From the sequence record OQ689735.1: a DNA stretch of 64,000 nt; one strand, 5' to 3'. The DNA comes from Escherichia phage 4E10. Below the pieces are notes generated by a model. The model did not search any database. It was given only the letters and a program-made list of their open reading frames with translations, and was not told the DNA's origin. This document shows, in pieces, positions 4,615 to 52,562 of the stretch. The position numbers were made by a program, and so were the translations under genes. Within the stretch, counting starts at the first letter, position 1. Each line of letters starts with the position of its first letter.

Positions 4615-4991
4615 TTAAATTTAATGGCTTGAAGGAGACTAATAATTCTCAAACGGCTTCTTTCATCTTTAACTGTAAAAGAAAGAGGGTCGCCAGATTT
4701 CATAGTGATAGTGCATTCAAAATCAAAATCTTCAGGAACTTCTTCGAAGAAGTCAAATTCTTCATCATAAATTAGAACTTCACTCCGCAGACTGTGAAGA
4801 ATTTTTCCAGCATTTCTGCTAGTTGCTGTACTAATCATTGTAACATTATGACCTTTCATATCTTCAACGATAAATTCGCTTGTAGATATTACGGCATTAA
4901 TAGAACCATTCCTATTACTAGCAGAAAGTAGATATTTCTTTTCTTCACCTTCGCGAACACGATATTTCTTACCGATTTTAAACATAATCAC
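4611..4991 (-). CDS. hypothetical protein
   Basis: 126-aa ORF; start overlaps upstream stop. Confidence 0.55.
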   Translation of the reverse strand: MIMFKIGKKYRVREGEEKKYLLSASNRNGSINAVISTSEFIVEDMKGHNVTMISTATSRNAGKILHSLRSEVLIYDEEFDFFEEVPEDFDFECTITMKSGDPLSFTVKDERSRLRIISLLQAIKFK

Positions 4992-5164
4992 CCTTTAATT
5001 AAATCGTAAAAACCGCCATTCACATGCTTAGGAGCAGAAGGCCGACGAGTAGACAAACAATGACATTTAGGGCAAACATCATTTTCTCGTTCAGAAATCT
5101 TTTTAATTTTTTCATATTCATGCCCGCAATCTTCGGATTGGCATTTATAATCATACATTGGCAT
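4988..5164 (-). CDS. small zinc-ribbon protein (CxxC...CxxC)
   Basis: 58-aa ORF below the track cutoff: MPMYDYKCQSEDCGHEY...CPKCHC; fills the gap between flanking ORFs. Confidence 0.45.
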   Translation of the reverse strand: MPMYDYKCQSEDCGHEYEKIKKISERENDVCPKCHCLSTRRPSAPKHVNGGFYDLIKG

Positions 5165-5166
5165 AA

Positions 5167-5604
5167 TTATTCCTTAAAGTGTGCTTTCAACATCTGATAC
5201 AAAGACCATGCCTGTTCATTATTTTCAATAGTAACTTTCATGACCGGGAATTCTGTGAAATCTTCTATTTGTTCTTGCTCTTCCTGCTCTTGTTCTTCAG
5301 CAGCCTGGTAGGGATTTTTAACTTCATCAAAGAACACAGCTTCACTCGTTGAAAGCCAGATAAAATCTTCATCCAAAATATCTTTACCAGAAGATAACGC
5401 CAATTTTCCACTAGATGTCACAAGTTTAGTAGGACGACCAAGATAGTCAATATCTGTAACTCTAAAAGGTTCCATACCAAGACGTCGTGCATAAATTCCG
5501 TTTTCAGTATGGTCCTTGATAAAATCTTCTTGAGCTTGTTTATTTTTAAATTGATACCATTTATTAACTTCAAATTTAATAGCCATTAATAAGTTTCCTT
5601 CCAA
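5167..5604 (-). CDS. hypothetical protein (T4 goF position); start may be at 5586
   Basis: 145-aa ORF with acidic EQEQEEQEQ stretch; assignment by synteny only. Confidence 0.45.
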
Positions 5605-6181: not shown

Positions 6182-6673
6182 TTATGCATAGCGAGCTTTG
6201 CTATAGTGTTTAATCCAACTTTCAGGAATGACTTTGTATGTTCCTAAAAATACCGCGTTGTATAACTTAACGCCATCTTCTACCCATTGATCAGTAATGT
6301 ATGCACACATAGCGCGAGTACGGTTAACAACACCTTCCTCACCTTCAGTAAATTCAAACTCATAAGGAGCAACGAACTTAATAGCTTGACCGAGTTTCCA
6401 CTTAAAGTCTACACCTACATGCGAAGTATCAATCGTTTCAATTCCTTTAGCAGGAACAGCTTTCAAAAACGCAGACTCAAGAAATTTCCATCGAACATAA
6501 CCAAACTGAGGTTTAGACATTCCATCTTTAGGAATGATACGCACTTTTACTTCAGAATCTTCATCTTTAACACCATGTTTAAGCTGAATGCTTACGACTT
6601 CAACCAATTTTCCTGCTGCTTTAGAACGGGATTTATCAGATACACGAGCAATTTCACCGATATTAATATTCAT
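6182..6673 (-). CDS. motB: MotB-like protein
   Basis: 163-aa ORF at the T4 motB position; size matches. Confidence 0.5.
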   Translation of the reverse strand: MNINIGEIARVSDKSRSKAAGKLVEVVSIQLKHGVKDEDSEVKVRIIPKDGMSKPQFGYVRWKFLESAFLKAVPAKGIETIDTSHVGVDFKWKLGQAIKFVAPYEFEFTEGEEGVVNRTRAMCAYITDQWVEDGVKLYNAVFLGTYKVIPESWIKHYSKARYA

Positions 6674-6717
6674 AATTATCTCTCACTTGTTAAAAAGATT
6701 TTATACTCCGCAGGACC

Positions 6718-6747
6718 ATTATACTCTGGTCCCAAGAGTTTGTAAAC
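6718..6747 (-). promoter_or_regulatory. T4-type early promoter
   Basis: GTTTAC, 18 bp, TATAAT on minus strand; GGACCA/TGGTCC inverted repeat brackets the -10. Confidence 0.6.
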
Positions 6748-7247
6748 TAGCTTACACGAACATTAATCACTGCGCTGCGAGGAACTACAGAGTACTCTCC
6801 AGCATGAACTACGTTCAGAAGTTCAACGCCATCTTCAATCCACTGGTCAGTTACCCAACCGCCAATCGGATTCGCGAATGGACGACGAATATAAACTGCC
6901 TTACACAACAAATCAGTCGGGTCTTCAATTTTTTCAACTGGTGTTACATACATAGAAACTAAATCCATATCAATATGGGATTTTTCTTGTTCTTCTTTTT
7001 CAATTTCTGTCAATAAATTGAAATCTTCTTCATAGATGATGAATGATGATACCCTTCCATAATAGTTTCTAATTTCCATGTACACTGTACCAATGAGAAT
7101 TCCGCTATTAACACTAATAACAGTAAAAGGATATCCGCCAGTTGTACCAAGAAGTTCCCAAAACTTGCTATCAGTCGTATTCGACATTGTCTGGAAATCA
7201 ATTTCAGATGGTTTTTTCATTTGATACGTAGTATTAATTTTAATCAT
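6747..7247 (-). CDS. hypothetical protein, MotB paralog by C-terminal domain
   Basis: 166-aa ORF; C-terminus GWVTDQWIEDGVELLNVV resembles MotB AYITDQWVEDGVKLYNAV. Confidence 0.55.
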   Translation of the reverse strand: MIKINTTYQMKKPSEIDFQTMSNTTDSKFWELLGTTGGYPFTVISVNSGILIGTVYMEIRNYYGRVSSFIIYEEDFNLLTEIEKEEQEKSHIDMDLVSMYVTPVEKIEDPTDLLCKAVYIRRPFANPIGGWVTDQWIEDGVELLNVVHAGEYSVVPRSAVINVRVS

Positions 7248-7256
7248 AATTTTCCT

Positions 7257-15447: not shown

Positions 15448-15588
15448 TTACAATTTAGCGGCTTTCCAGAGTTGTTCAATAATCTCTTGGTCTATTTCTT
15501 TAGTTATTTCATTACGTAATAAAGCAGTAAGGGCTTTCGCCCTTTTCTTATTCAACTTTTTGAGTTGACGCTTATTTAAACGAGCCAT
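15448..15588 (-). CDS. small basic hypothetical protein
   Basis: 46-aa ORF below cutoff (MARLNKRQLKKLNKKRAKAL...); ATG overlaps gene 56 stop (TAATG). Confidence 0.4.
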   Translation of the reverse strand: MARLNKRQLKKLNKKRAKALTALLRNEITKEIDQEIIEQLWKAAKL

Positions 15589-16106
15589 TAATAACCTCGG
15601 TCTTGACGAGCGAAATTTTCAGCATTTTTCAAGTAATAAAGTTTAAAGATTTCTTCAGCTGTAAGACCAAGACCCTGGAACATATTCAGAACGAAATGAA
15701 GAATATCAATCATTTCAAATTTAATTTCTAACTGGTCTTGCGGAGACAAATCAGTAATCAGAGTTTCACGACGTTCACCATGCTGCGACTTCCAAGGTTT
15801 CCATACAGCAGATGCGTCTTTTTCACCATTACTCATACCACCAAGAGAAGTCAGAAGTTCACGGAATTCATCATCAATATAATCTTTCTGATTGCGTAGC
15901 CAATCAACAACTTCACCGGCAGTAGCCAAGTCATCAGGATGACGATTATATTCAGGTTTATCTTTAGCTAAACGAATCTGCAGAGATTTCTGCATGTCAA
16001 GCATTACCTGCAGCGGGTCTTTTTCATCACCGAGAATATCCCAGTATTCATTTTGAGCTTTATCAGCGCCTTCGATCAGTTGACTACATTCGTTGAAATG
16101 CGGCAT
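15588..16106 (-). CDS. 56: dCTP pyrophosphatase (MazG-like)
   Basis: 172-aa ORF; matches T4 gp56 in size, position and sequence. Confidence 0.85.
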   Translation of the reverse strand: MPHFNECSQLIEGADKAQNEYWDILGDEKDPLQVMLDMQKSLQIRLAKDKPEYNRHPDDLATAGEVVDWLRNQKDYIDDEFRELLTSLGGMSNGEKDASAVWKPWKSQHGERRETLITDLSPQDQLEIKFEMIDILHFVLNMFQGLGLTAEEIFKLYYLKNAENFARQDRGY

Positions 16107-16179
16107 GTTATTTTTCCTTTCAATTCATGGGTTAGTAGATTAATTATACAATAAATATATAAAGCAATAAGGAGGACAT

Positions 16180-16236
16180 ATGGTACAAAAATTAATGGCA
16201 CTTGTTAATGCCATCAAAAGTAATAAAAACGTATAG
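16180..16236 (+). CDS. plus-strand mini-ORF (18 aa) with strong RBS
   Basis: AAGGAGG 5 nt before ATG; MVQKLMALVNAIKSNKNV. Confidence 0.3.
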   Translation: MVQKLMALVNAIKSNKNV

Positions 16237-16253
16237 CTTTTACTATTTCTGCT

Positions 16254-16379
16254 ATGGTAGGAATTTTACTCTGGAACTTTATTTTATCACCAATTGCAAT
16301 TGCACATGGTGTTAATATTCCAGTAGTTACTCTTGATACATTTGTAGATTTAGCATTTGCTTTAGTTGGGTTAATTTAA
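16254..16379 (+). CDS. plus-strand mini-ORF (41 aa), hydrophobic peptide
   Basis: MVGILLWNFILSPIAIAHGVNIPVVTLDTFVDLAFALVGLI; stop overlaps gene 61 stop convergently. Confidence 0.3.
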   Translation: MVGILLWNFILSPIAIAHGVNIPVVTLDTFVDLAFALVGLI

Positions 16380-17404
16380 ATCTTAGCATATTTAGATAGC
16401 CGCATTTTAGCCATTAACCCCTGGGCAATATTATTTTTCATATATTCCATAATTTGTTCAGGGGTTGCACCTTCCTTTCTAATCATATCATTAACATCTT
16501 TTGATTTCCAGGGAGATTTATCCCAAAACATAACCCTTTCTCCTGCATCAACTAATTTAGTCATTCGCTTGATAGTGTCAGGGTGACGAGGTTCATTATC
16601 TAAAACCCACACTCGTCTATCTTTAAATGGAACAACTTCTAGGTCTAATTGACCACCCGTAATAGCTATACCATTTTCAATGAAAAGGGAATCGATAGGT
16701 CCTTCTAGAACATATACATCGCCATCTTTAACTCGTTCAACTCCATAGATTTTTGTTGCCTCAGGATAAGCTTTAATGGTGATATATTTTTGAGGAGCAT
16801 CTTTCTTTAATGCGCGTCCTTGAAAAGACTCAGCCTTTCCATTAGCATTATAAATTGGAATAACAAGACGAGGCTCAGAAATTTCCTTTTTGTATGTTCC
16901 CGGTGCGATGCTATTAACTAATTTAGGCCATTCGGTTGTAAACCAAAGATATTTCCATTTATCCTTTGGAATACAACGAGCTTTTACATATTTTATAATT
17001 GGATGGTCTTCCGCCAGTTTATCTAATCTAACACATGACGGAAGAGATTTAATTATTTTCTTCTCAGGTTGTTTAGGAAGTTCTTTAGGTTTTTCTACTG
17101 GACGACTTTTACCTTTTTCTTTTCTTATTTCAAAGATATACTCACGATATAAATCAGGTTCAAACTCCTTTAAATATATTCCGATTGGTGCATGATAGTT
17201 ACAGTTATAACAATGAATATTTCCTTCATTATTATCACCATAATACCATCCACGAGCTTTATTCTGGTCGGTTTTTGAATCTCCGCAAACAGGGCATCTA
17301 AACCGCAATTTAAAAGTTGAACTATTATTTACTTGTGTGAATTTAGGTAAATGAGCCAATGCACGATACGCAAACTCATTATCAATCCAAGGTATTGATG
17401 ACAT
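16376..17404 (-). CDS. 61: DNA primase
   Basis: 342-aa ORF; zinc ribbon CPVCGD...CYNC plus TOPRIM region; matches T4 gp61. Confidence 0.9.
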   Translation of the reverse strand: MSSIPWIDNEFAYRALAHLPKFTQVNNSSTFKLRFRCPVCGDSKTDQNKARGWYYGDNNEGNIHCYNCNYHAPIGIYLKEFEPDLYREYIFEIRKEKGKSRPVEKPKELPKQPEKKIIKSLPSCVRLDKLAEDHPIIKYVKARCIPKDKWKYLWFTTEWPKLVNSIAPGTYKKEISEPRLVIPIYNANGKAESFQGRALKKDAPQKYITIKAYPEATKIYGVERVKDGDVYVLEGPIDSLFIENGIAITGGQLDLEVVPFKDRRVWVLDNEPRHPDTIKRMTKLVDAGERVMFWDKSPWKSKDVNDMIRKEGATPEQIMEYMKNNIAQGLMAKMRLSKYAKI

Positions 17405-17406
17405 TT

Positions 17407-17571
17407 TTACTCTTCTTTTTCTTTAGATTCCTCTTTTTTCTTTTTAGGAATCTGTTCAGGACCTTTATTTACTACAGCACCTGACGTTGTTCCAGTAGAG
17501 ATATTTTCAGGACTACTACCTGAATCTCCAGCGACCATATCTTCTTTGATAAATTCTTTATATGTTTTCAT
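17407..17571 (-). CDS. mini-ORF with internal-protein-like N-terminus
   Basis: 54-aa ORF below cutoff; N-terminus MKTYKEFIKED resembles the IP capsid-targeting sequence MKTYQEFIAE; low-complexity tail. Confidence 0.4.
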   Translation of the reverse strand: MKTYKEFIKEDMVAGDSGSSPENISTGTTSGAVVNKGPEQIPKKKKEESKEKEE

Positions 17572-43731: not shown

Positions 43732-43853
43732 GTCCCATCTCCATATCAATTAAGTCATTTATCGTTGGTTCATTATATACTGTTTCTTCATCAGTGTAAA
43801 CCGGTTCTTCCGGCTCTGGCTCTACAGTTTCCCATCTAGCCGCCCACCAAGGT

Positions 43854-44048
43854 TTAACCCCGAAGCTTATTAAGTTCTTCATCATCAATCCAGGATTCTA
43901 GTCCTGTTGGCAGGTCACATTCAATTTCCCAAAGAAGTTCTTCAATTTTCTGAAGACGATCTAGTTCTTCGGCTGGAATAGTAACCATTGATGGAGTTCT
44001 TGATACACTAATATCGTAAATCATATTTACCCCAGTTTGACCATGCAA
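43854..44048 (-). CDS. small hypothetical protein
   Basis: 64-aa ORF. Confidence 0.45.
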   Translation of the reverse strand: MHGQTGVNMIYDISVSRTPSMVTIPAEELDRLQKIEELLWEIECDLPTGLESWIDDEELNKLRG

Positions 44049-44242
44049 TCACCGTATTTCCACTTAGAAATAGACTTTTCACCATTAGAATAATAAACTT
44101 CGAGTTTAGCACGATTATTTTTAATTTGAATAACCTTGGCTGTCATCAAAGTTCCATACCCATAATAAACTGCAACTTCATCACCTACATATACCGCGCT
44201 TCCGCGGTAATCATGAATATAGTCAGTTCCTTCGAGCATCAT
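44027..44242 (-). CDS. small hypothetical protein
   Basis: 71-aa ORF. Confidence 0.45.
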   Translation of the reverse strand: MMLEGTDYIHDYRGSAVYVGDEVAVYYGYGTLMTAKVIQIKNNRAKLEVYYSNGEKSISKWKYGDCMVKLG

Positions 44243-44503: not shown

Positions 44504-44746
44504 TTATTCCTTAATTCCTAGTACTTGTTTAAAAGTCTCGTCGTAATCAAGACTTTGGCCCGTTTGTTCTTTATGTTTGTATATAATATCACTTACTTCT
44601 GATAGCATATTTTTATATGAACGAGTTAAAGCAGATTTAAGCACGCTGTATCTATCAGGAAATTTACCATGTTCATTATAATAAGCTATTGCTAATTCAC
44701 GGACTGCCTTTTCAGCAGTCTCCATATATTCTTTACGCTTTGTCAT
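44504..44746 (-). CDS. small hypothetical protein
   Basis: Track ORF 44504..44887 trimmed to internal start [13 protein letters not shown] to avoid frame overlap. Confidence 0.4.
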
Positions 44747-45047
44747 TTTCTTCTCGGTCAAATCGGTGTTTACAATGGCGACATTTATAACGAAGATTAC
44801 TAGTCTGCCAATGGACCAATTGCACCTGTTCAGTTCCACATTCAGGGCAATTAGGAACGTTTTTAGAAGCCCTTTCACGACGTTCAACCATGACCATTAC
44901 AGAATCCCAATTAACAGGAGGGCTATAATCATCACAACCATGAATCTTTCCACGCATTTCCAAATTGTCTTCTTCACCAGCCATAATAATTTTAATTAGA
45001 CTAGAATTACTTGAAGCTGCAATGTCTTCTAATAGACGCTTTTTCAT
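44733..45047 (-). CDS. zinc-ribbon protein
   Basis: 104-aa ORF; CPEC...CRHC four-Cys motif. Confidence 0.5.
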
Positions 45048-46012
45048 TTCAATACCTCAATAGCATTGCGTAAACCATTTGCTTTTGCATTAAGAGCTTT
45101 TAACAATTTGGTGTGTTCTGCAATTTGGGCTTCAACTTCAATCAAACGAGCATTGAGATATTCGCGTTCTTCGCTCAGGTTATCAACCTTTTCTACTTTA
45201 GGTTCTTTTACAACTGGCTTATACGTATTAGGGTTCTTCAGTTTAATTAGAATGCGTGAGCTGTATAACATTGAACCATTATCTTCGGTTTCATCATACA
45301 TTTCCACTACGTCCATAATTTTTAACATCATGCGAAGTTTATAAGACAACGAACGAATAGTTTTGTTGTGCTTATTAATTTCTTTAGCTGTCATGGTGCC
45401 GAGATTACGTGAGTAATAATAAGGAACCTGGATATTAATTAATACTGATGAACCACCTGGCTTGTGTGTTACTTCATCAGCAATAACCCAGTCCTTAACA
45501 TGAACTGTATTTGTACGGTCATCGCCTGCGGTAAATAGTTTACGAGCATGCTTAAAAAGCATATTCACTTGGTCATTGAATTGACAAGCGAATTTATCAG
45601 CAAATTTAGTTTCAGGAATGGTAGATAACCAATCAGCTAAATGGGTCTTTTTAACATCGTTAACAATAGTAAATTCAACCAAATCGGTTATAGATGTCGC
45701 AGATTTAATGAAGCTCGGCTTCATAAAGTTTTTAATGTTATCGCGAGCTACAGTAGAAGATAACATACGAGAACGTTTAAACCATTCAAGCAAATTGCCT
45801 AACGAATGAGAATAAGCATTTTGAGTATCTTTACAGATATGATTTTCCTGGCCAACATATTGAAGGAAATCACGAAGAATATTATTGATTACTGCTCTGT
45901 GTCCTATCTGATAATTACGATGTTTAGTAATAAGACTATCAAAATAATCAATATAATGTTTACGAGTTTTCATGTTCTTCTCACTTGGTTGATGATTTAT
46001 ACTCCGAGCCAT
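45044..46012 (-). CDS. hypothetical protein, coiled-coil family member A
   Basis: 322-aa ORF; C-terminal coiled coil; true start may be the internal ATG at about 45973. Confidence 0.55.
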   Translation of the reverse strand: MARSINHQPSEKNMKTRKHYIDYFDSLITKHRNYQIGHRAVINNILRDFLQYVGQENHICKDTQNAYSHSLGNLLEWFKRSRMLSSTVARDNIKNFMKPSFIKSATSITDLVEFTIVNDVKKTHLADWLSTIPETKFADKFACQFNDQVNMLFKHARKLFTAGDDRTNTVHVKDWVIADEVTHKPGGSSVLINIQVPYYYSRNLGTMTAKEINKHNKTIRSLSYKLRMMLKIMDVVEMYDETEDNGSMLYSSRILIKLKNPNTYKPVVKEPKVEKVDNLSEEREYLNARLIEVEAQIAEHTKLLKALNAKANGLRNAIEVLK

Positions 46013-46025
46013 CCTTGGCTTTAAA

Positions 46026-47027
46026 TTACTTAATTAACTGTAAAGCTTGTTCCAAACGATCCAGGCGATTAACAGATTCTTCCCAAATCCTTTTAGCCTG
46101 CTCATATTCTTTCTGCGCTTTATTAGAAATTTCTAGAGCTTCTTTATAAGCTTTTTCTAATGCAATAACTTCTGGACGAATTTCTACCGATTTAGGCGAA
46201 TCATCAAGATTATCCATTAGTTCCTCAAGTGTAGTTTCTTCTTTAGGAGTATTCACAATTTCTTCACATTTTTGTTGGTAAATTTCTTTATCAGTTAGTG
46301 AATAAGCACACTTTACTTCACGAAGACTAACTACAATTTTATATCCTTCCCAACCGCATATATTCTTAAAAGGATAAGTATGAATATTTTCTACTGTTTC
46401 CATACAAAGTAGTGCAGTCTCTAATTGTCGAGTTATATCACTAGCAATTGAGAAAAATTTATTAATATTCTTTTGGTTAGCGTCTGGTGTAAAAAATTCA
46501 TAATTCACAAAAATAGCTGCTTTATTTTTATCAAGCTCATATTCTTTTATGATAATCATATCAGAAGCCCAAGGATGAATTTGACGATAATCGCCATAGC
46601 ATAATTTAGAAGCTGATTTTAGAATTTGCTTTTTGAAAAGTCTGAAATTACTAATCCAACGACGAGTAAAAATATTCTCAGGGTCTTCTTTAATATTAAG
46701 ATGATAAGAATTAACATCACCGAACCAATTATATCCTACTACATCTTTAGTTCGTTTAATTTCTTTCCCAAAATTACCAAGAATATCCCGATTAACCAAA
46801 TATGAAAGAAGACGAGACTCTTTAAAGGTTTTCTTGATAACATCTTTATCTACACGGCTAGAAATTTTACGAATTTCATGAATAAATTTAGTAGAAGAAA
46901 CAATACTTGCATCAACACTATTGAGCCATTGATTGATAATAGAAAGAACGATATTTTGGCCAAACATCGGTATAGCTTTATCATCAATAACGCTATTGAA
47001 TGATTTGATATATTCGTTACGAGTCAT
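46026..47027 (-). CDS. hypothetical protein, coiled-coil family member B
   Basis: Track ORF trimmed to ATG after GAGGAG (MTRNEYIKSF...); motif WISNFRLFKKQILKSASKL. Confidence 0.55.
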   Translation of the reverse strand: MTRNEYIKSFNSVIDDKAIPMFGQNIVLSIINQWLNSVDASIVSSTKFIHEIRKISSRVDKDVIKKTFKESRLLSYLVNRDILGNFGKEIKRTKDVVGYNWFGDVNSYHLNIKEDPENIFTRRWISNFRLFKKQILKSASKLCYGDYRQIHPWASDMIIIKEYELDKNKAAIFVNYEFFTPDANQKNINKFFSIASDITRQLETALLCMETVENIHTYPFKNICGWEGYKIVVSLREVKCAYSLTDKEIYQQKCEEIVNTPKEETTLEELMDNLDDSPKSVEIRPEVIALEKAYKEALEISNKAQKEYEQAKRIWEESVNRLDRLEQALQLIK

Positions 47028-47055
47028 ATTAATCTCCTCAGTAGAAAGTAAGAAC

Positions 47056-47085
47056 ATTATACCACATCCTTGTGGCAAAGTAAAC
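47056..47085 (-). promoter_or_regulatory. T4-type early promoter
   Basis: GTTTAC, 18 bp, TATAAT with CCACA/TGTGG spacer repeat. Confidence 0.55.
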
Positions 47086-48104
47086 TAGTTCAGTGCATTT
47101 AGTGCATTGTTCAGTTTAGAACGTTGCTTTGTCAGATTTTGAACCCTTGACTGAGCTTGTTCTAACACCTTTTCAGCTTCTAGCACTTCATTGGTCGCTT
47201 TAACGAGTTCATCATCTACTGCCTTAAGAGACTTCTCAATCGCGTCAGCGTGCCATTTTTCTACAGGTTTAAAATTTGAATTTTCAGTAGGAAGAAAACT
47301 CACTTTATTAAGTTTACATGCATCTATATTGCTTGAGTTATACATCCAAAATTTAGGATCGTTTGATAAGTAATTAGATAAATTTAAGTTATCTTGCACT
47401 TCTTGCTTTTTCTCTTGTGGGACTTCGTCCTTTCTCAAAAAATCGTATTTAAATGAAACGACCATATCAAGTTCATACGTTGTTGTGTCTAATTTAAATC
47501 GCTCAAAACGAGGTAAAATCTTAGAATGAACACTAGCAACAACATCCATATACTTAAATGCTTCTGTCAACTGCGATTTAAGGCATTCGCAAATTGAAAG
47601 AGAATTTTTTGTATTAGGTTTAAAGCTAATTCGTGCAGTTCTATTATTTTCTTTTAATGGTCTTACTTCCATCTGAAGAGTATAACCATCAAATTTCAGG
47701 TTCTTTAAGTTAATGTCAGAACCTTTTAATCGACTAGCTGTCGACAAAATTTGCTTTAATTGTTTACGGAATAGAGCAATAAATCTCCATTCAAGACGGT
47801 AATGATTTGGATTAAAAAATCCTGTTGATAAATCAACCTTACTCTGACCAACGCCTTGAACAAATAGAGGATTTTTATAATCAATAGTTTTACAGAAATC
47901 GGTGAGCTGTTCACGAGCAGTCATTTGCGTAATATATCCAGCTTTATCAAAATGTCGCAACCATTCACTGCTATTCATATACTTAAAGTGAATGGAACTA
48001 TTAACTCTATCAGGGTCTAAATTATTTTGGCACAAAAATGTCATAACATTACGGGTATAGCTGGCATTACGAACCATATCTTCAATTTGAGAACGAGTTT
48101 TCAT
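47085..48104 (-). CDS. hypothetical protein, coiled-coil family member C
   Basis: 339-aa ORF; motif WRFIALFRKQLKQILSTASRL; C-terminal coiled coil. Confidence 0.55.
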   Translation of the reverse strand: MKTRSQIEDMVRNASYTRNVMTFLCQNNLDPDRVNSSIHFKYMNSSEWLRHFDKAGYITQMTAREQLTDFCKTIDYKNPLFVQGVGQSKVDLSTGFFNPNHYRLEWRFIALFRKQLKQILSTASRLKGSDINLKNLKFDGYTLQMEVRPLKENNRTARISFKPNTKNSLSICECLKSQLTEAFKYMDVVASVHSKILPRFERFKLDTTTYELDMVVSFKYDFLRKDEVPQEKKQEVQDNLNLSNYLSNDPKFWMYNSSNIDACKLNKVSFLPTENSNFKPVEKWHADAIEKSLKAVDDELVKATNEVLEAEKVLEQAQSRVQNLTKQRSKLNNALNALN

Positions 48105-48112
48105 GGTATTCC

Positions 48113-49000
48113 TTAAGATTTAAGTAAATCAACAATTTTAATTAACTTTTCACGCTCAGATTTAGCTTTACTACTCAATCCAGATAGTCTAAAGATTTCA
48201 TCGTCATATTGTTGAATAGAAATATTCAGCTCTTCAATTTGCTTATTAAAATAATCAATTTGCTCAGAATGTTTTTCGTTACTACGAACTGGTACAGGTT
48301 TTGTAGGCAATTTAGTTGAACTGGATTCATCCGGGCGATAAATTAAAATACAACTTGAACCAATTGGACATTTTGCACCAGATGAATATTCTAATGTTCC
48401 AGATTCTTTTAAAACTTCAAAAGCTAAACAGAGATGATGACCCATATTGACATAATCAGTAGAGCGAGCTCTGATGTAATAATCATCTCCACGAGTACTA
48501 AATTTAAAGCATTTAAGGTCTTCTGTATTATTGGTCTTAAAAATCATTTGTTTATCTAGACCTTTAGCTAATCGAGCGCCTAATGCTAATAATCGTCGTT
48601 GATTTTCCCACAAATCTGCAATCATTTGGTCAAATGATAATTTTGGCATTAGTCGACCATAAAGGTCATATCCTTTATTATAATTACGAAGAATTTCACT
48701 CGCATTAATACGAGACAATGCTCCAATTTTATTAAGGGCTTTCATGATGCGATTAGATAAACTCATTCCAGATCCGTTTGTTCGCTGTAAATGTTTTTCT
48801 AATCCAAATCCAATATCAACTTTAAATTTATCTAAAATTTCAGCATGAACATCTCTGTCAATAACATTCAAATCCAAAGTTGGGTTAAATCTATGAAAAA
48901 ATTTATCTGGCTCTCCACGACGAAGTACAGTCCATTCATTCAATTTTTTATTAACTAAAGATTTAATTACTGTATTGACATTATTAATTACTACTGACAT
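48113..49000 (-). CDS. hypothetical protein, coiled-coil family member D
   Basis: Track ORF trimmed to ATG after GAGGA (MSVVINN...); C-terminal coiled coil. Confidence 0.5.
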   Translation of the reverse strand: MSVVINNVNTVIKSLVNKKLNEWTVLRRGEPDKFFHRFNPTLDLNVIDRDVHAEILDKFKVDIGFGLEKHLQRTNGSGMSLSNRIMKALNKIGALSRINASEILRNYNKGYDLYGRLMPKLSFDQMIADLWENQRRLLALGARLAKGLDKQMIFKTNNTEDLKCFKFSTRGDDYYIRARSTDYVNMGHHLCLAFEVLKESGTLEYSSGAKCPIGSSCILIYRPDESSSTKLPTKPVPVRSNEKHSEQIDYFNKQIEELNISIQQYDDEIFRLSGLSSKAKSEREKLIKIVDLLKS

Positions 49001-49007
49001 ATTTTCC

Positions 49008-49415
49008 TCACTCAATTTCAATTTTACTAAATACACAGAATATGATGGAAAAGACTATATAAGCACCGCATACAGATTGAACTAATACCATTCCAAAGAA
49101 CCAAACAATATTATCAAACCATGTCTGTTTTACGTCGAAAGGACGTAAACTTACAGTAATATTATCACCTTTTTCTATTGAAGAATACATCTCTGGGGAA
49201 ATATATTCACTAAATCTATAACCGTCTTTGAGTTCATATACGGCAATAAACGATAAACTAGACCCCTTTCCTTGAGTTCCTGTAAGGGTATTAACTACAG
49301 TAACATCATAATCTTTATAATGCATATAATCATTAATAGCATAATAACCATATGCAACTACTATACATAAACAACATATCAATAAATTCAATCTTTTAAT
49401 TATCAACTGTTTCAT
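49008..49415 (-). CDS. membrane protein
   Basis: 135-aa ORF with N- and C-terminal hydrophobic helices. Confidence 0.5.
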   Translation of the reverse strand: MKQLIIKRLNLLICCLCIVVAYGYYAINDYMHYKDYDVTVVNTLTGTQGKGSSLSFIAVYELKDGYRFSEYISPEMYSSIEKGDNITVSLRPFDVKQTWFDNIVWFFGMVLVQSVCGAYIVFSIIFCVFSKIEIE

Positions 49416-49470
49416 AATAATCTCAATTAAAAGGGCTTAGAACCATTATACCATCCTTGGTATAAAGCGG

Positions 49471-49998
49471 TTATGCGAGTACCGTCTTTAACCGTTCTTC
49501 AAACTTCCGAAGAGTATTTTGGCGTTCAGCTCTTTGCTTTTTGTAAGTTTCAATACGCTCTGAAATGAGAGTGTATCGTTCATTTACTGATTCTTTCATA
49601 AAATCAGGAATTTCACGAGAAGCTTTAATCTCATCAAATTTATCAATAACAGCTTGCTCTTCAGCAATTAAGTTATCATACATTAAAATATCTTTCTTGA
49701 TGAACTCAATATCTTCTTGAGTTACACGAGATAATTTAGATGCTTTATCCTTTTTGTACTGTTCGTTAGTATCACGAGACCAGTGTAATGTACGATTTTT
49801 ATTCGTATTTTTGTAAATTTCTACAATACCAATTTCATCAATAATAACGATCCAATTCCAACGGGATTTGTAAATTTGTCCTCCATCAACAGTGATTTCA
49901 CCTCCGATTGAGATGTCATTAAAGAACTTGCTTTGTGCTTCAGATTTAAATTTACCATCGTTGTAATTTACCAGGTTGAAAATATCTTTAGCATTCAT
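49471..49998 (-). CDS. hypothetical protein with C-terminal coiled coil
   Basis: Track ORF 49471..50058 trimmed to ATG after GGAGG (MNAKDIF...); the upstream part is promoter leader. Confidence 0.5.
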   Translation of the reverse strand: MNAKDIFNLVNYNDGKFKSEAQSKFFNDISIGGEITVDGGQIYKSRWNWIVIIDEIGIVEIYKNTNKNRTLHWSRDTNEQYKKDKASKLSRVTQEDIEFIKKDILMYDNLIAEEQAVIDKFDEIKASREIPDFMKESVNERYTLISERIETYKKQRAERQNTLRKFEERLKTVLA

Positions 49999-50026: not shown

Positions 50027-50056
50027 ATAGTACCACAGAGGAACAGTCTTGTAAAC
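50027..50056 (-). promoter_or_regulatory. T4-type early promoter (cassette copy)
   Basis: GTTTAC, 18 bp, TACTAT; shares GTAGTTGATAGTTGTATAGTACCACAG core with 25091..25120. Confidence 0.55.
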
Positions 50057-50462: not shown

Positions 50463-51431
50463 TTATTTCAGAAGAGTAACCTCAGCGATTTCTTCCCAAC
50501 CGTTTTTGTCGGTCATAATAAAGTCAGCAAGATAAAGAGCAGTACGCAGTGAAACATTGCGTAAACGATTAACATTGACTTTCATCCATGATAATGCTTT
50601 ATAAGTTTCTTCATCAGAAAGACCGCGCTTTTGCATCATGTCAGTTGAAAGAATAACATCTTCAACCCTGACCATAATTTCTTCATTAGTGTGAACACCC
50701 AAATCTAAATAAACTGAGCGGGACACTAATGCTTGTAAATGTGGAGCAAGTTTAGTACCACGGTCTAATTCGCGGTCAATGTCAACGTTTGTGATAAAAA
50801 CAATCGTTCCTTTAAATTCAAACTCACGCTCAATGCCTTTTTCTTCTAAGTAAGAAGATGCAGTGCTCCAGCAGACTTTACGGGTCTCTCCAGTGTCCAG
50901 AGCGGCTTTTAGAAGATTAAGAATATCCATATCAGAGAAAACATCCACATCATCAATCAAAAGGACAGAATTCTCTTCACGATTATTCCAAAGCTGCTCA
51001 TAAAGACCGATACCGGAGATTTTACCGTTAATGCTTTTATATTCAATGTATCCAATATCATTTGCTTTATTTAAAGCTTTATCTAAAGAATACGTTTTAC
51101 CAATACCTGCTGCACCAGAGATAATTAATGAACGAATGTTTCCGTTAATAATACCATTCGTCATCATTCCCATAACATTAAATCTTTTATTAATGCGGGT
51201 TTTCATATCTTCATACGATTCTTTAACTTCTTCAACTTTTACACCATCATATGAAATGTCTGATTTGTAAACCCAAACACCGCGACGTTTACCGTCAATT
51301 TCAACAAAAACTTTACCATCTCCTTGTGCATCTACCGGAGCATTATCTGGGAACCATTCGCCTAAAAGCTCAAAAGTTCCAGAGATTTCTTTACCGAAGT
51401 AGATACCCTTATTGATAGTTACAGTTTTCAT
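50463..51431 (-). CDS. P-loop NTPase
   Basis: Track ORF trimmed to MKTVTINK start; Walker A GAAGIGKT, Walker B LLIDDVD. Confidence 0.6.
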   Translation of the reverse strand: MKTVTINKGIYFGKEISGTFELLGEWFPDNAPVDAQGDGKVFVEIDGKRRGVWVYKSDISYDGVKVEEVKESYEDMKTRINKRFNVMGMMTNGIINGNIRSLIISGAAGIGKTYSLDKALNKANDIGYIEYKSINGKISGIGLYEQLWNNREENSVLLIDDVDVFSDMDILNLLKAALDTGETRKVCWSTASSYLEEKGIEREFEFKGTIVFITNVDIDRELDRGTKLAPHLQALVSRSVYLDLGVHTNEEIMVRVEDVILSTDMMQKRGLSDEETYKALSWMKVNVNRLRNVSLRTALYLADFIMTDKNGWEEIAEVTLLK

Positions 51432-51468
51432 TTTATTCTCCAAATCTGTATCAGTAGTTGATAGTTGT

Positions 51469-51498
51469 ATAGTACCATAAAGCTTTATGATTGTAAAC
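51469..51498 (-). promoter_or_regulatory. T4-type early promoter (cassette copy)
   Basis: GTTTAC, 18 bp, TACTAT; about 50 bp identical to 25071..25120. Confidence 0.6.
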
Positions 51499-51528
51499 CG
51501 TTTTGTGAAAAATTTTTGAAATAAAAAA

Positions 51529-51546
51529 GGGAGCCCGAAGGCTCCC
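51529..51546 (-). terminator. hairpin terminator (GGGAGCC-CGAA-GGCTCCC)
   Basis: Perfect 7-bp stem after the 51549..52562 stop. Confidence 0.5.
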
Positions 51547-51548
51547 TA

Positions 51549-52562
51549 TCATTTATAATAACTTCGGTGGTTTTCAAGATAGACCTTCTCAAGGAAGTCA
51601 TCCCAGAAACTCATGTCTACTGTTTTAGGCATACCGTTCTTAGAAGCTTCAGTAGATGCTGCTTCTACTTGATCGACCACATCTTCTAAAAACTCTTGAA
51701 CCGTTTTAAATGGATGCTTACCCAACTTCACGTCGAGAATAAATGGAGCGTCTTGAAGTGGATAAATCAAGTCGCCAGTTTTGTAAATTTCCAATAGTTG
51801 AAGTCCACCACGACAGGCATGACTCAGAGCTTTCCAGTCAATGCCTTCATTGGCTTCGGCCTTACGAGCACGTTCACCATATTCAGCATCTAATTTGTTC
51901 AGTGACTGCTTAAGCTCAATAAGAGAAAGCGTTGTCTGATATTTACGACCCAATACAGTGTAGAACGTTTGTGGACCTGTTTTCTCATGATTATGGAATA
52001 CCCATTCACAAAATTCGTTCTCTGGAAGACGATGCTTAATATCTTCAACTTTAGTTCGACGCTGCTTAATGGAACCGTCTTCTTGGTAATCAACCCATTG
52101 CTCAGGGATTTGATTAACTACTTTCAATACATCACGTAATGCGGCCAAACGAGAACCCTTAACACCGTATTTAGAAGCTTGCTTGCGAACATATCCTAAA
52201 TAGGATTTCATGTTAGTCGTATAAAAACGAGAACGGTTGTCTTGAATAAACTTCCACACATCAGGCAAATCGGATTTAACCACTAGTTCAGGTGGAGTGT
52301 GAAGCATATCCAATGCTACAGTTTCACCATCTGCTGCTAATTTAAAGAAATACTTAAGACTGTATAGTTCATGGTCAATATCATCTTTAGTGTTTTTAGA
52401 TGATGTGTTGTTAGTGTTTTTACTCATATGCTCTTTAACATTTCCAATAAGAATATCGCGAGCAGGAGGAACAAAGATTTCTTTAAAATCTACATCAGAT
52501 TCTGGAGTAGAAGTTCCATAAAGATGACTACCAAAATAGCTTTTCATTACTGTTTTCATCAT
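51549..52562 (-). CDS. putative nucleotidyltransferase (pol-beta superfamily)
   Basis: 337-aa ORF; N-terminal GS...D-x-D motif as FGSHLYGTSTPESDVDF. Confidence 0.5.
   Translation of the reverse strand: MMKTVMKSYFGSHLYGTSTPESDVDFKEIFVPPARDILIGNVKEHMSKNTNNTSSKNTKDDIDHELYSLKYFFKLAADGETVALDMLHTPPELVVKSDLPDVWKFIQDNRSRFYTTNMKSYLGYVRKQASKYGVKGSRLAALRDVLKVVNQIPEQWVDYQEDGSIKQRRTKVEDIKHRLPENEFCEWVFHNHEKTGPQTFYTVLGRKYQTTLSLIELKQSLNKLDAEYGERARKAEANEGIDWKALSHACRGGLQLLEIYKTGDLIYPLQDAPFILDVKLGKHPFKTVQEFLEDVVDQVEAASTEASKNGMPKTVDMSFWDDFLEKVYLENHRSYYK

Follow-up and report, generated by a model that had tools for sequence, protein, structure and literature searches.

A candidate counter-defence array of head-linker-coiled-coil proteins in the nrdC.3-nrdC.8 segment of a T4-like phage

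The DNA analyzed here, referred to as the window, is a stretch of 64,000 nucleotides from Escherichia phage 4E10 (sequence record OQ689735.1), and the locus under study is its nrdC.3-nrdC.8 segment, a run of minus-strand genes in what is a T4-like (Tequatrovirus) phage. The array proteins share a head-linker-coiled-coil plan, and nrdC.3, nrdC.4, nrdC.5 and probably nrdC.6 represent diverged tandem copies of one ancestral gene. We consider it somewhat better than an even chance that the locus encodes an array of paralogous counter-defence inhibitors with a variable head on a coiled-coil stalk; with the same reserve, it would belong to an accessory block that extends from nrdC to nrdC.10/nrdC.11, is expressed early, is non-essential and serves counter-defence. 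The 5.2 kb around the array matched 740 phage records, nearly all from Tequatrovirus, with the best at 96-97% DNA identity, and the array genes corresponded one by one with those of the annotated phage vB_Eco_NR1 and of T4.

No phage has been studied more thoroughly than T4, and to our knowledge about half of its genes are still without a function. Here, genes of 300-340 codons, three or four in number and so far uncharacterised, are tied to a sibling with proven counter-defence activity, which makes them concrete candidates. Already known are the annotated T4 genes themselves, the individual families defined in Pfam and PHROGs, and, for one member, a function of the kind predicted. Three points appear to be new: nrdC.5, and probably nrdC.6, can be connected with the nrdC.3/nrdC.4 family; tails are conserved where heads vary; and distant T4-like phages have syntenic tandem counterparts. 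The finding is a modest extension of known anti-defence biology and not a new kind of system.

Architecture and kinship of the array proteins

The original prediction had described four consecutive open reading frames (ORFs) and a shorter fifth one, each ending in a heptad-like coiled coil. All five ORFs were confirmed at their coordinates, on the minus strand and with their ATG starts, which agree with the orthologue lengths, and a GAGGAG ribosome-binding site precedes the nrdC.4 ATG. Passed over was nrdC.7, which lies between nrdC.6 and nrdC.8 and is 92% identical to T4 nrdC.7, annotated in T4 as 'predicted membrane protein'; lacking both a heptad signal and profile similarity to the array proteins, it falls outside the family.

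The shared C-terminal coiled coil was borne out. The five array ORFs took ranks 1-5 when the C-terminal 42 residues of every non-nested minus-strand ORF in the window with ≥100 amino acids (aa), 72 in all, were given a crude score for heptad periodicity. In each of the five tails, 6-8 heptads follow one unbroken register, in which most a and d positions are hydrophobic (mainly L/I/V/A), and all finish in a similar L..A(L/I)..L(K/N) pattern. The signal is strong in nrdC.3, nrdC.5 and nrdC.6, and weaker in nrdC.4, where Ala and Tyr are more frequent, and in nrdC.8, where it is weakest. Compared with shuffled sequences, nrdC.3, nrdC.5 and nrdC.6 scored above the background and nrdC.8 marginally so (p ~0.04), while nrdC.4 did not, with 8.5% of shuffles reaching its score and its best-scoring window lying elsewhere in the protein. 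AlphaFold2 (AF2) predicted one unbroken terminal helix in both nrdC.4 and nrdC.5 (Table 1), preceded by a low-confidence Pro/Lys-rich linker.

Within orthologue groups, the C-terminal helix is usually more conserved than the head. Among nrdC.4 orthologues, helices are 59-92% identical with heads at 22-75% identity, and helices still reach 65-76% where the heads have fallen to 22-23%. The two exceptions are both nrdC.5 homologues, namely the most distant ones (19-23% in the heads against 26-28% in the helices) and the closest one (79% versus 75%). Tail conservation spans all faces of the helix, the solvent-facing b, c and f positions as well as the core.

The common plan consists of a head of about 240-260 residues, a flexible linker rich in Pro and Lys, and a C-terminal heptad helix of 45-60 residues, with the head made of an N-terminal helical bundle and an alpha/beta sandwich around a conserved F..(I/L)L...A.(K/R)L..G.D helix. 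The best-modelled member is nrdC.4, with a mean AF2 confidence (pLDDT) of 80.2, whose model contains helices at residues 3-84, beta hairpins at 89-108, the motif helices at 116-142, an alpha/beta region at 158-235, the low-confidence linker at 263-284 and the single terminal helix. The nrdC.5 model reached a pLDDT of 44.8, poor because the family is shallow, and only its terminal helix is confident; it was therefore used for the order of secondary-structure elements and not for fold searches. As in nrdC.4, the order runs from N-terminal helices through short strands and the long motif helix to strands, then to a helix followed by a hairpin, and ends with the linker and terminal helix.

An internal motif, which the original prediction had noticed in three of the proteins, aligns column for column in nrdC.4, nrdC.5 and nrdC.6 (Table 1), the register being taken from profile-profile alignments blind to the motif. 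On either side of it, these three proteins share one more collinear block, approximately SR.LS....a..iL..F.K upstream and QL..A...M..V downstream. The joint occurrence of coiled coil and motif is real and far beyond chance.

Kinship within the array is graded. Profile comparison solidly places nrdC.3 and nrdC.4 in one sequence family: hhalign gave a probability of 97.7% (E 1.4e-12, ~225 columns), jackhmmer merged the two, and both belong to phrog_1435. An hmmsearch with the nrdC.4 profile over 1.84 billion representative proteins returned only seven clusters, including the T4-type nrdC.3 at E 1.8e-8; nrdC.5 was absent from that search at E ≤0.001, and neither PHROG nor Pfam joins it to nrdC.3/nrdC.4. 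Aligned with the combined nrdC.3 and nrdC.4 profile, nrdC.5 gave hhalign probabilities of 90-91.5% (E 0.9-1.6e-6) over up to 250 columns that include head and tail, and it is probably a distant homologue that lies outside the curated family. The nrdC.4 model matched the BFVD model of phage JS10 nrdC.6 by Foldseek with E 8.7e-6 and a probability of 1.00 at template modelling (TM) scores of 0.41/0.48; given the predicted fold, the collinear motifs and synteny, nrdC.6 is probably a distant paralogue. For nrdC.8, hhalign probabilities did not exceed 1.7% with any other member (1.5% with nrdC.3 or nrdC.4). It shares only the C-terminal helix, combines the same kind of tail with a different, highly conserved head, and on profile comparison is best treated as a separate gene. 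The proposal of tandem paralogues thus stands for nrdC.3 and nrdC.4, probably for nrdC.5, for nrdC.6 by structure and synteny only, and falls for nrdC.8; likewise, the N-terminal halves, said to differ, have indeed diverged, but those of nrdC.3, nrdC.4 and nrdC.5 are still detectably homologous by hhalign.

A first round of hhalign had scored nrdC.3-nrdC.5 at 99.8% and nrdC.4-nrdC.6 at 99.7%. Both scores were spurious, because two natural chimeras, the metagenomic protein P0056 and gp094 of Salmonella phage Manna, sat in two family alignments; the chimeras were left out of the final alignments and the comparisons repeated. Blastp among the five proteins detected the nrdC.3-nrdC.4 pair alone (E 4e-7), and is therefore too insensitive for the other pairs.

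Foldseek searches of the nrdC.4 model against predicted viral structures returned significant matches (E 2e-7 to 6e-4) to uncharacterised proteins of 228-374 aa from T4-like phages of Acinetobacter, Klebsiella, Enterobacter, Pectobacterium, Serratia and Erwinia. The two matches in Acinetobacter phage Acj61, p120 and p121 (330 and 304 aa), are adjacent genes in the syntenic position between nrdC and nrdC.10 (15451-17471 of the locus stretch), and their public models matched nrdC.4 at E 2e-7 and 1e-6. Both finish in a heptad helix, one of them with LNKALEIMML, resembling LEQALQLIK of nrdC.4. With the Acj61 proteins, sequence profiles gave no more than motif-level signals, and the relationship is carried by Foldseek and synteny. 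In a Mosigvirus-like phage, nrdC.6-, nrdC.5- and nrdC.3-type genes stand in tandem. Given the syntenic tandem counterparts in distant T4-like phages, the module is old and positionally conserved in Straboviridae, with extremely narrow sequence families.

No match to a characterised enzyme emerged: in Pfam, NCBIfam and PADLOC, no enzyme family scored above its cut-off for the array proteins; when the PDB was searched by sequence, nrdC.5 and the nrdC.4 profile returned nothing, or designed helical repeats at E 3e-4 or weaker in which no stretch passed alone; and the nrdC.4 model had no Foldseek match in the PDB at E ≤0.001. NCBIfam and PADLOC produced sub-threshold noise only, the PHL, integrase-SAM and MksE matches in Pfam likewise stayed under threshold, and a resemblance to the tail terminator (a gpU-like alpha/beta sandwich), considered as a lead to a 'structural-protein mimic', was dropped as too weak and generic. 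Residues 43-99 of nrdC.3 (45716-45886) gave weak, concordant matches to the N-terminal SAM-like domain of phage integrases, far under the cut-offs (Pfam E 0.084; NCBIfam tyrosine recombinase E 0.0018).

Occurrence, selection and rearrangement

The array genes differ in how widely they are retained. By tblastn, nrdC.6 and nrdC.8 were each found in 741 phage records, nrdC.3 in 653, nrdC.4 in 553 and nrdC.5 in 537, and the latter three are missing from about 90-200 of the 741 related genomes. Identity is at least 99% for nrdC.8 in 402 of the 741 records. Within Tequatrovirus, the ratio of nonsynonymous to synonymous substitution rates (dN/dS) was 0.19 for nrdC.4, 0.21 for nrdC.5, 0.10 for nrdC.6 and 0.02 for nrdC.8, versus 0.01-0.07 for the neighbouring endonuclease VII gene, nrdC, nrdC.9, nrdC.10 and nrdC.11; gene-wide values of 0.10-0.35 are raised over the neighbours yet remain below 1.

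Three allele classes of nrdC.3 occur within Tequatrovirus, at ≥90%, ~76% and ~62% identity to the window copy (45044-46012). The T4-class allele, 62% identical to that of the window, has a synonymous divergence (dS) of ~1 versus 0.1-0.3 in the flanking genes, forming a mosaic patch of much older divergence, which points to recombination having replaced the allele, not to diversification in recent times.

Rearrangements were observed as well. In phage Manna (locus positions 6215-7252, corresponding to window 46026-49000), residues 1 to ~269 of nrdC.6 are fused in frame with residues 258-333 of nrdC.4, and nrdC.5 and most of nrdC.4 are deleted; the junction falls in a GA(T/A)GAAATT microhomology (GATGAAATT / GAAGAAATT), within two peptides that resemble each other, QQYDDEI and QQKCEEI. 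In phage ACG-C40 (locus positions 4800-5220), an N-terminal remnant of nrdC.5 is joined out of frame to a C-terminal remnant of nrdC.3 and nothing else of nrdC.3-nrdC.5 is left, with nrdC.6 and nrdC.8 intact. P0056 joins residues 145-271 of nrdC.5 to residues 142-322 of nrdC.3, and Sf25 gp220 is an nrdC.6 that contains residues 176-258 twice. One relative (locus L002, 8054-9086) has nrdC.4 divided between two ORFs, and in T2 nrdC.4 is reduced to a 155-aa fragment. Copy-number and allele turnover among close relatives is thus documented by the record counts of 537-741, the chimeras, the deletions, one duplication and the nrdC.3 allele classes. Besides being plastic, the locus can be dispensed with in the laboratory, transposon mapping having found nrdC.3 to nrdC.9 all non-essential in a laboratory host, and its evolutionary pattern is typical of accessory host-range genes. 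To call the family 'diversifying', as in the original prediction, is apt for the raised dN/dS of nrdC.4 and nrdC.5 (~0.2), the nrdC.3 alleles and the gene losses; it does not fit nrdC.8, and no ratio reaches 1.

Proposed counter-defence function and alternative explanations

A described function exists for one member, nrdC.5, contrary to the view that the array had none. According to Srikant et al. (2022, eLife, PMC9391042), a T4 deletion mutant fails on strain ECOR17 and on MG1655 carrying ECOR17 dsr1, and plasmid expression of the early gene nrdC.5 restores its plating on dsr1 cells, Dsr1 being a sirtuin defence that is overcome by T4 nrdC.5. The activity is known for the T4 allele, and the window gene would join it by orthology: the predicted protein is ~91% identical to T4 NrdC.5, of equal length and with the same flanking genes, and it matches DUF7235 (PF23882) with 382 bits (cut-off 30) along its full length, residues 1-339 on profile positions 1-307 of 307. 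The evidence of that publication is genetic complementation only; it gives neither a structure nor a mechanism and makes no mention of a kinship with nrdC.3, nrdC.4 or nrdC.6. Thus, the suggestion of anti-defence effectors holds for nrdC.5 by published experiment on the T4 allele, and is inferred for the other members. In the literature library searched, nothing further was found on nrdC.3, nrdC.4, nrdC.6 or nrdC.8, or on the mechanism of NrdC.5 against Dsr1.

We propose that each paralogue may act as a non-enzymatic, stoichiometric inhibitor, whose fast-evolving head would bind one host immune protein, and whose paralogue-specific, strongly conserved helix would oligomerise the protein or dock it on a conserved partner. 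A 2026 preprint (PMC12803255) reports that Dsr1 detects phage major capsid protein through its TPR sensor domain. Most simply, NrdC.5 could block Dsr1 by occupying or distorting this capsid-sensing domain, so that depletion of NAD+ would not be triggered, and nrdC.3, nrdC.4 and nrdC.6 might act likewise on other host factors or defences. The conceptual model is DSAD1 of phage SPbeta, which is reported to bind the sensor region of the defence-associated sirtuin DSR2 and to prevent its activation by a phage structural protein (PMC10973363, PMC10981675, PMC11087589); it is unrelated to NrdC.5 in sequence and fold. The T4 anti-defence neighbourhood offers a second likeness: gp49.2 and nrdC.1, reported to inhibit OLD and Septu, respectively, and the dmd/tifA/adfA anti-toxin island are likewise clustered non-essential early genes that each counter one defence and are amplified or deleted, but their products are small (~80-106 aa) and unrelated in sequence, whereas the nrdC.3-nrdC.6 proteins are ~300-340 aa, paralogous (for nrdC.6 probably so) and provided with a coiled-coil tail.

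Several observations weigh against this picture. The sole member with an experimental function is nrdC.5, and direct binding between NrdC.5 and Dsr1 is an assumption of the model. With dN/dS under 1 over the genes as a whole, there is no proof of positive selection, and nrdC.6 and nrdC.8, found in all 741 records, with nrdC.8 near-invariant, look more like parts of a conserved housekeeping interaction than like arms-race genes. The kinship of nrdC.6 relies on one Foldseek match of moderate TM score, the motif register and synteny, its sequence profile being non-significant (E 0.004-0.07 overall; E 0.02-0.07 and probability ≤2.2% against the nrdC.3/nrdC.4 family), and since the nrdC.5 model is unusable, a fold common to nrdC.4 and nrdC.5 is not shown structurally. 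Homology of the C-terminal helices across paralogues was set aside as a claim: in end-anchored profile scores compared with a heptad-preserving column shuffle, similarity between paralogues did not rise above heptad periodicity, the best p among 10 pairs being 0.02 and not significant after multiple testing.

These last points bear on an alternative that we regard as unlikely, namely that the coiled coil is a convergent or mobile module, that nrdC.3 and nrdC.4 are the only true paralogues, and that nrdC.5, nrdC.6 and nrdC.8 are unrelated proteins with a similar tail. Such an origin agrees with helix-to-helix similarity within the heptad null, with blastp detecting only the nrdC.3-nrdC.4 pair, with the separate Pfam and PHROG families of nrdC.5, nrdC.6 and nrdC.8, with the non-significant profiles of nrdC.6 and nrdC.8, and with the natural chimeras, in which tails are swapped between genes. 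Against it stand the alignment of nrdC.5 with the nrdC.3 and nrdC.4 profile, which runs through the head, the three collinear conserved blocks of nrdC.4, nrdC.5 and nrdC.6, the Foldseek probability of 1.00 that links nrdC.4 both to nrdC.6 and to the syntenic tandem proteins of distant T4-like phages, and the agreement of the nrdC.4 and nrdC.5 models in secondary-structure order. For nrdC.8, a convergent or mobile tail is the preferred reading; for the others we keep to diverged copies of one gene, with nrdC.6 as a probable case. A different function is the subject of another alternative, to which we likewise give a low probability: the paralogues could be early host-takeover or regulatory proteins, such as nucleic-acid- or polymerase-binding ones, and the effect of nrdC.5 on Dsr1 could be indirect, via the timing or level of the trigger or via host metabolism. 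The early transcription unit with sigma-70-like promoters, the universal presence and conservation of nrdC.6 and nrdC.8 in Tevenvirinae, and the weak likeness of nrdC.3 to the integrase SAM-like domain are in line with it, but such similarities either fall far short of the curated cut-offs or are of a kind common to alpha/beta sandwiches in general, laboratory hosts can be infected without the genes, with nrdC.3, nrdC.4 and nrdC.5 often lost in nature, and the nrdC.5 phenotype is specific to dsr1. Less probable still is that the C-terminal helices join the paralogues into one hetero-oligomeric, multi-headed complex instead of independent homo-oligomers. For such a complex speak the co-transcription of these neighbours, the similar endings of the five tails, and a helix sequence that is peculiar to each paralogue and conserved on every face, b, c and f among them; against it, ACG-C40 retains intact nrdC.6 and nrdC.8 after losing nrdC.3, nrdC.4 and nrdC.5, and nrdC.5 alone complements the mutant from a plasmid, the available text of PMC9391042 being silent on deletion of the other nrdC paralogues.

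The array of counter-defence inhibitors, still our favoured picture, makes nrdC.3, nrdC.4 and nrdC.6 candidates for counter-defence that are worth screening against defence-system libraries, and the head/linker/helix plan makes the silencing of the Dsr1 sirtuin by NrdC.5 dissectable. Since T4-like phages of Acinetobacter and others carry tandem genes of this fold in the corresponding place, any mechanism discovered would probably generalise across Straboviridae, including therapy-candidate phages, whose host range is limited by such defences. A bolder extension, possible but on balance doubtful, would unite nrdC.3, nrdC.4, nrdC.5 and nrdC.6, Acj61 p120/p121 and, by fold, the Klebsiella, Pectobacterium, Serratia and Erwinia proteins in one ancient Straboviridae-wide orphan-fold superfamily. 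Such a platform of inhibitors would be modular, a 'head on a coiled-coil stalk', with each paralogue retargeted to a different immune sensor and NrdC.5-Dsr1 the first solved case; the helix, conserved on all faces, would be a common functional device, for obligate oligomerisation or docking to a common partner, and not a passive zipper.

Coordinates and neighbouring features

Table 1. Features of the nrdC.3-nrdC.8 segment (window positions; residues of the respective protein)
Feature	Residues	Position	Strand	Remarks
nrdC.3 orthologue	322 aa	45044..46012	-	Annotation of relatives; phrog_1435 (E 3e-117)
nrdC.3 layout				Helical + alpha/beta head, Pro/Lys-rich linker, C-terminal coiled coil
nrdC.3 coiled-coil helix	279-322	45047..45178	-	a = RLILAI, d = LLVHLLL; 0/200 shuffles reach the score
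nrdC.4 orthologue	333 aa	46026..47027	-	phrog_1435 (E 2e-166), precomputed PF26897
nrdC.4 C-terminal helix	285-333	46029..46175	-	AF2 helix 285-332; heptad register
nrdC.4 motif FRLFKKQILKSASKL	128-142	46602..46646	-	Within model helices 116-130 and 132-142
Sigma-70-type promoter-like site		47056..47084	-	TTTACT-17-TATAAT, extended -10 (TG); gap upstream of nrdC.4; consensus match only
nrdC.5 orthologue	339 aa	47085..48104	-	Pfam DUF7235 (PF23882), E 2.7e-114
nrdC.5 C-terminal helix	280-339	47088..47267	-	AF2 helix 280-338; top heptad score in window
nrdC.5 motif FRKQLKQILSTASRL	112-126	47727..47771	-	Column for column with nrdC.4 motif; nearly invariant in family
nrdC.6 orthologue	295 aa	48113..49000	-	phrog_2257 and PF26899; probable distant paralogue
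nrdC.6 C-terminal helix or helices	245-295	48116..48268	-	Heptad register; conserved SGLS near middle
nrdC.6 motif LWENQRRLLALGARL	130-144	48569..48613	-	In register with nrdC.4 motif; alignment not significant alone
nrdC.7 orthologue	135 aa	49008..49415	-	Predicted membrane protein, between nrdC.6 and nrdC.8
nrdC.8 orthologue	175 aa	49471..49998	-	phrog_2274
nrdC.8 C-terminal amphipathic helix	126-175	49474..49623	-	Heptad score 4th of 72
Promoter-like site		50027..50055	-	TTTACA-17-TACTAT, TG; gap upstream of nrdC.8; consensus match only

The promoter-like site that precedes nrdC.4 fits the description of nrdC.5 as an early gene in PMC9391042. Upstream in the direction of transcription follow nrdC.9, nrdC.10 and nrdC.11. 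The latter two lie at 50463-52562: nrdC.10 is an AAA ATPase, AAA/STAND-like with a P-loop by sub-threshold Pfam matches, and nrdC.11 is a nucleotidyltransferase of the RlaP type that matches PF10127 at E 3e-11; both are highly conserved (dN/dS 0.04), and a strong hairpin terminator stands between them at 51528-51547.

On the other side of the array, the window nrdC.1 (44507-44746), the reported anti-Septu gene, encodes a protein 100% identical to that of T4. At 43749-44239 of the window, homologues of T4 gp49.2 (anti-OLD) and gp49.3 are not present, and the gp49.2/gp49.3 space is filled by two different small ORFs at 43854-44048 and 44027-44242. Many GenBank records label nrdC.1-nrdC.11 as 'thioredoxin', and one 2026 paper lists nrdC.8 as a nucleotide reductase; these labels apparently are artefacts that derive from the nrdC.x locus names and not from similarity.

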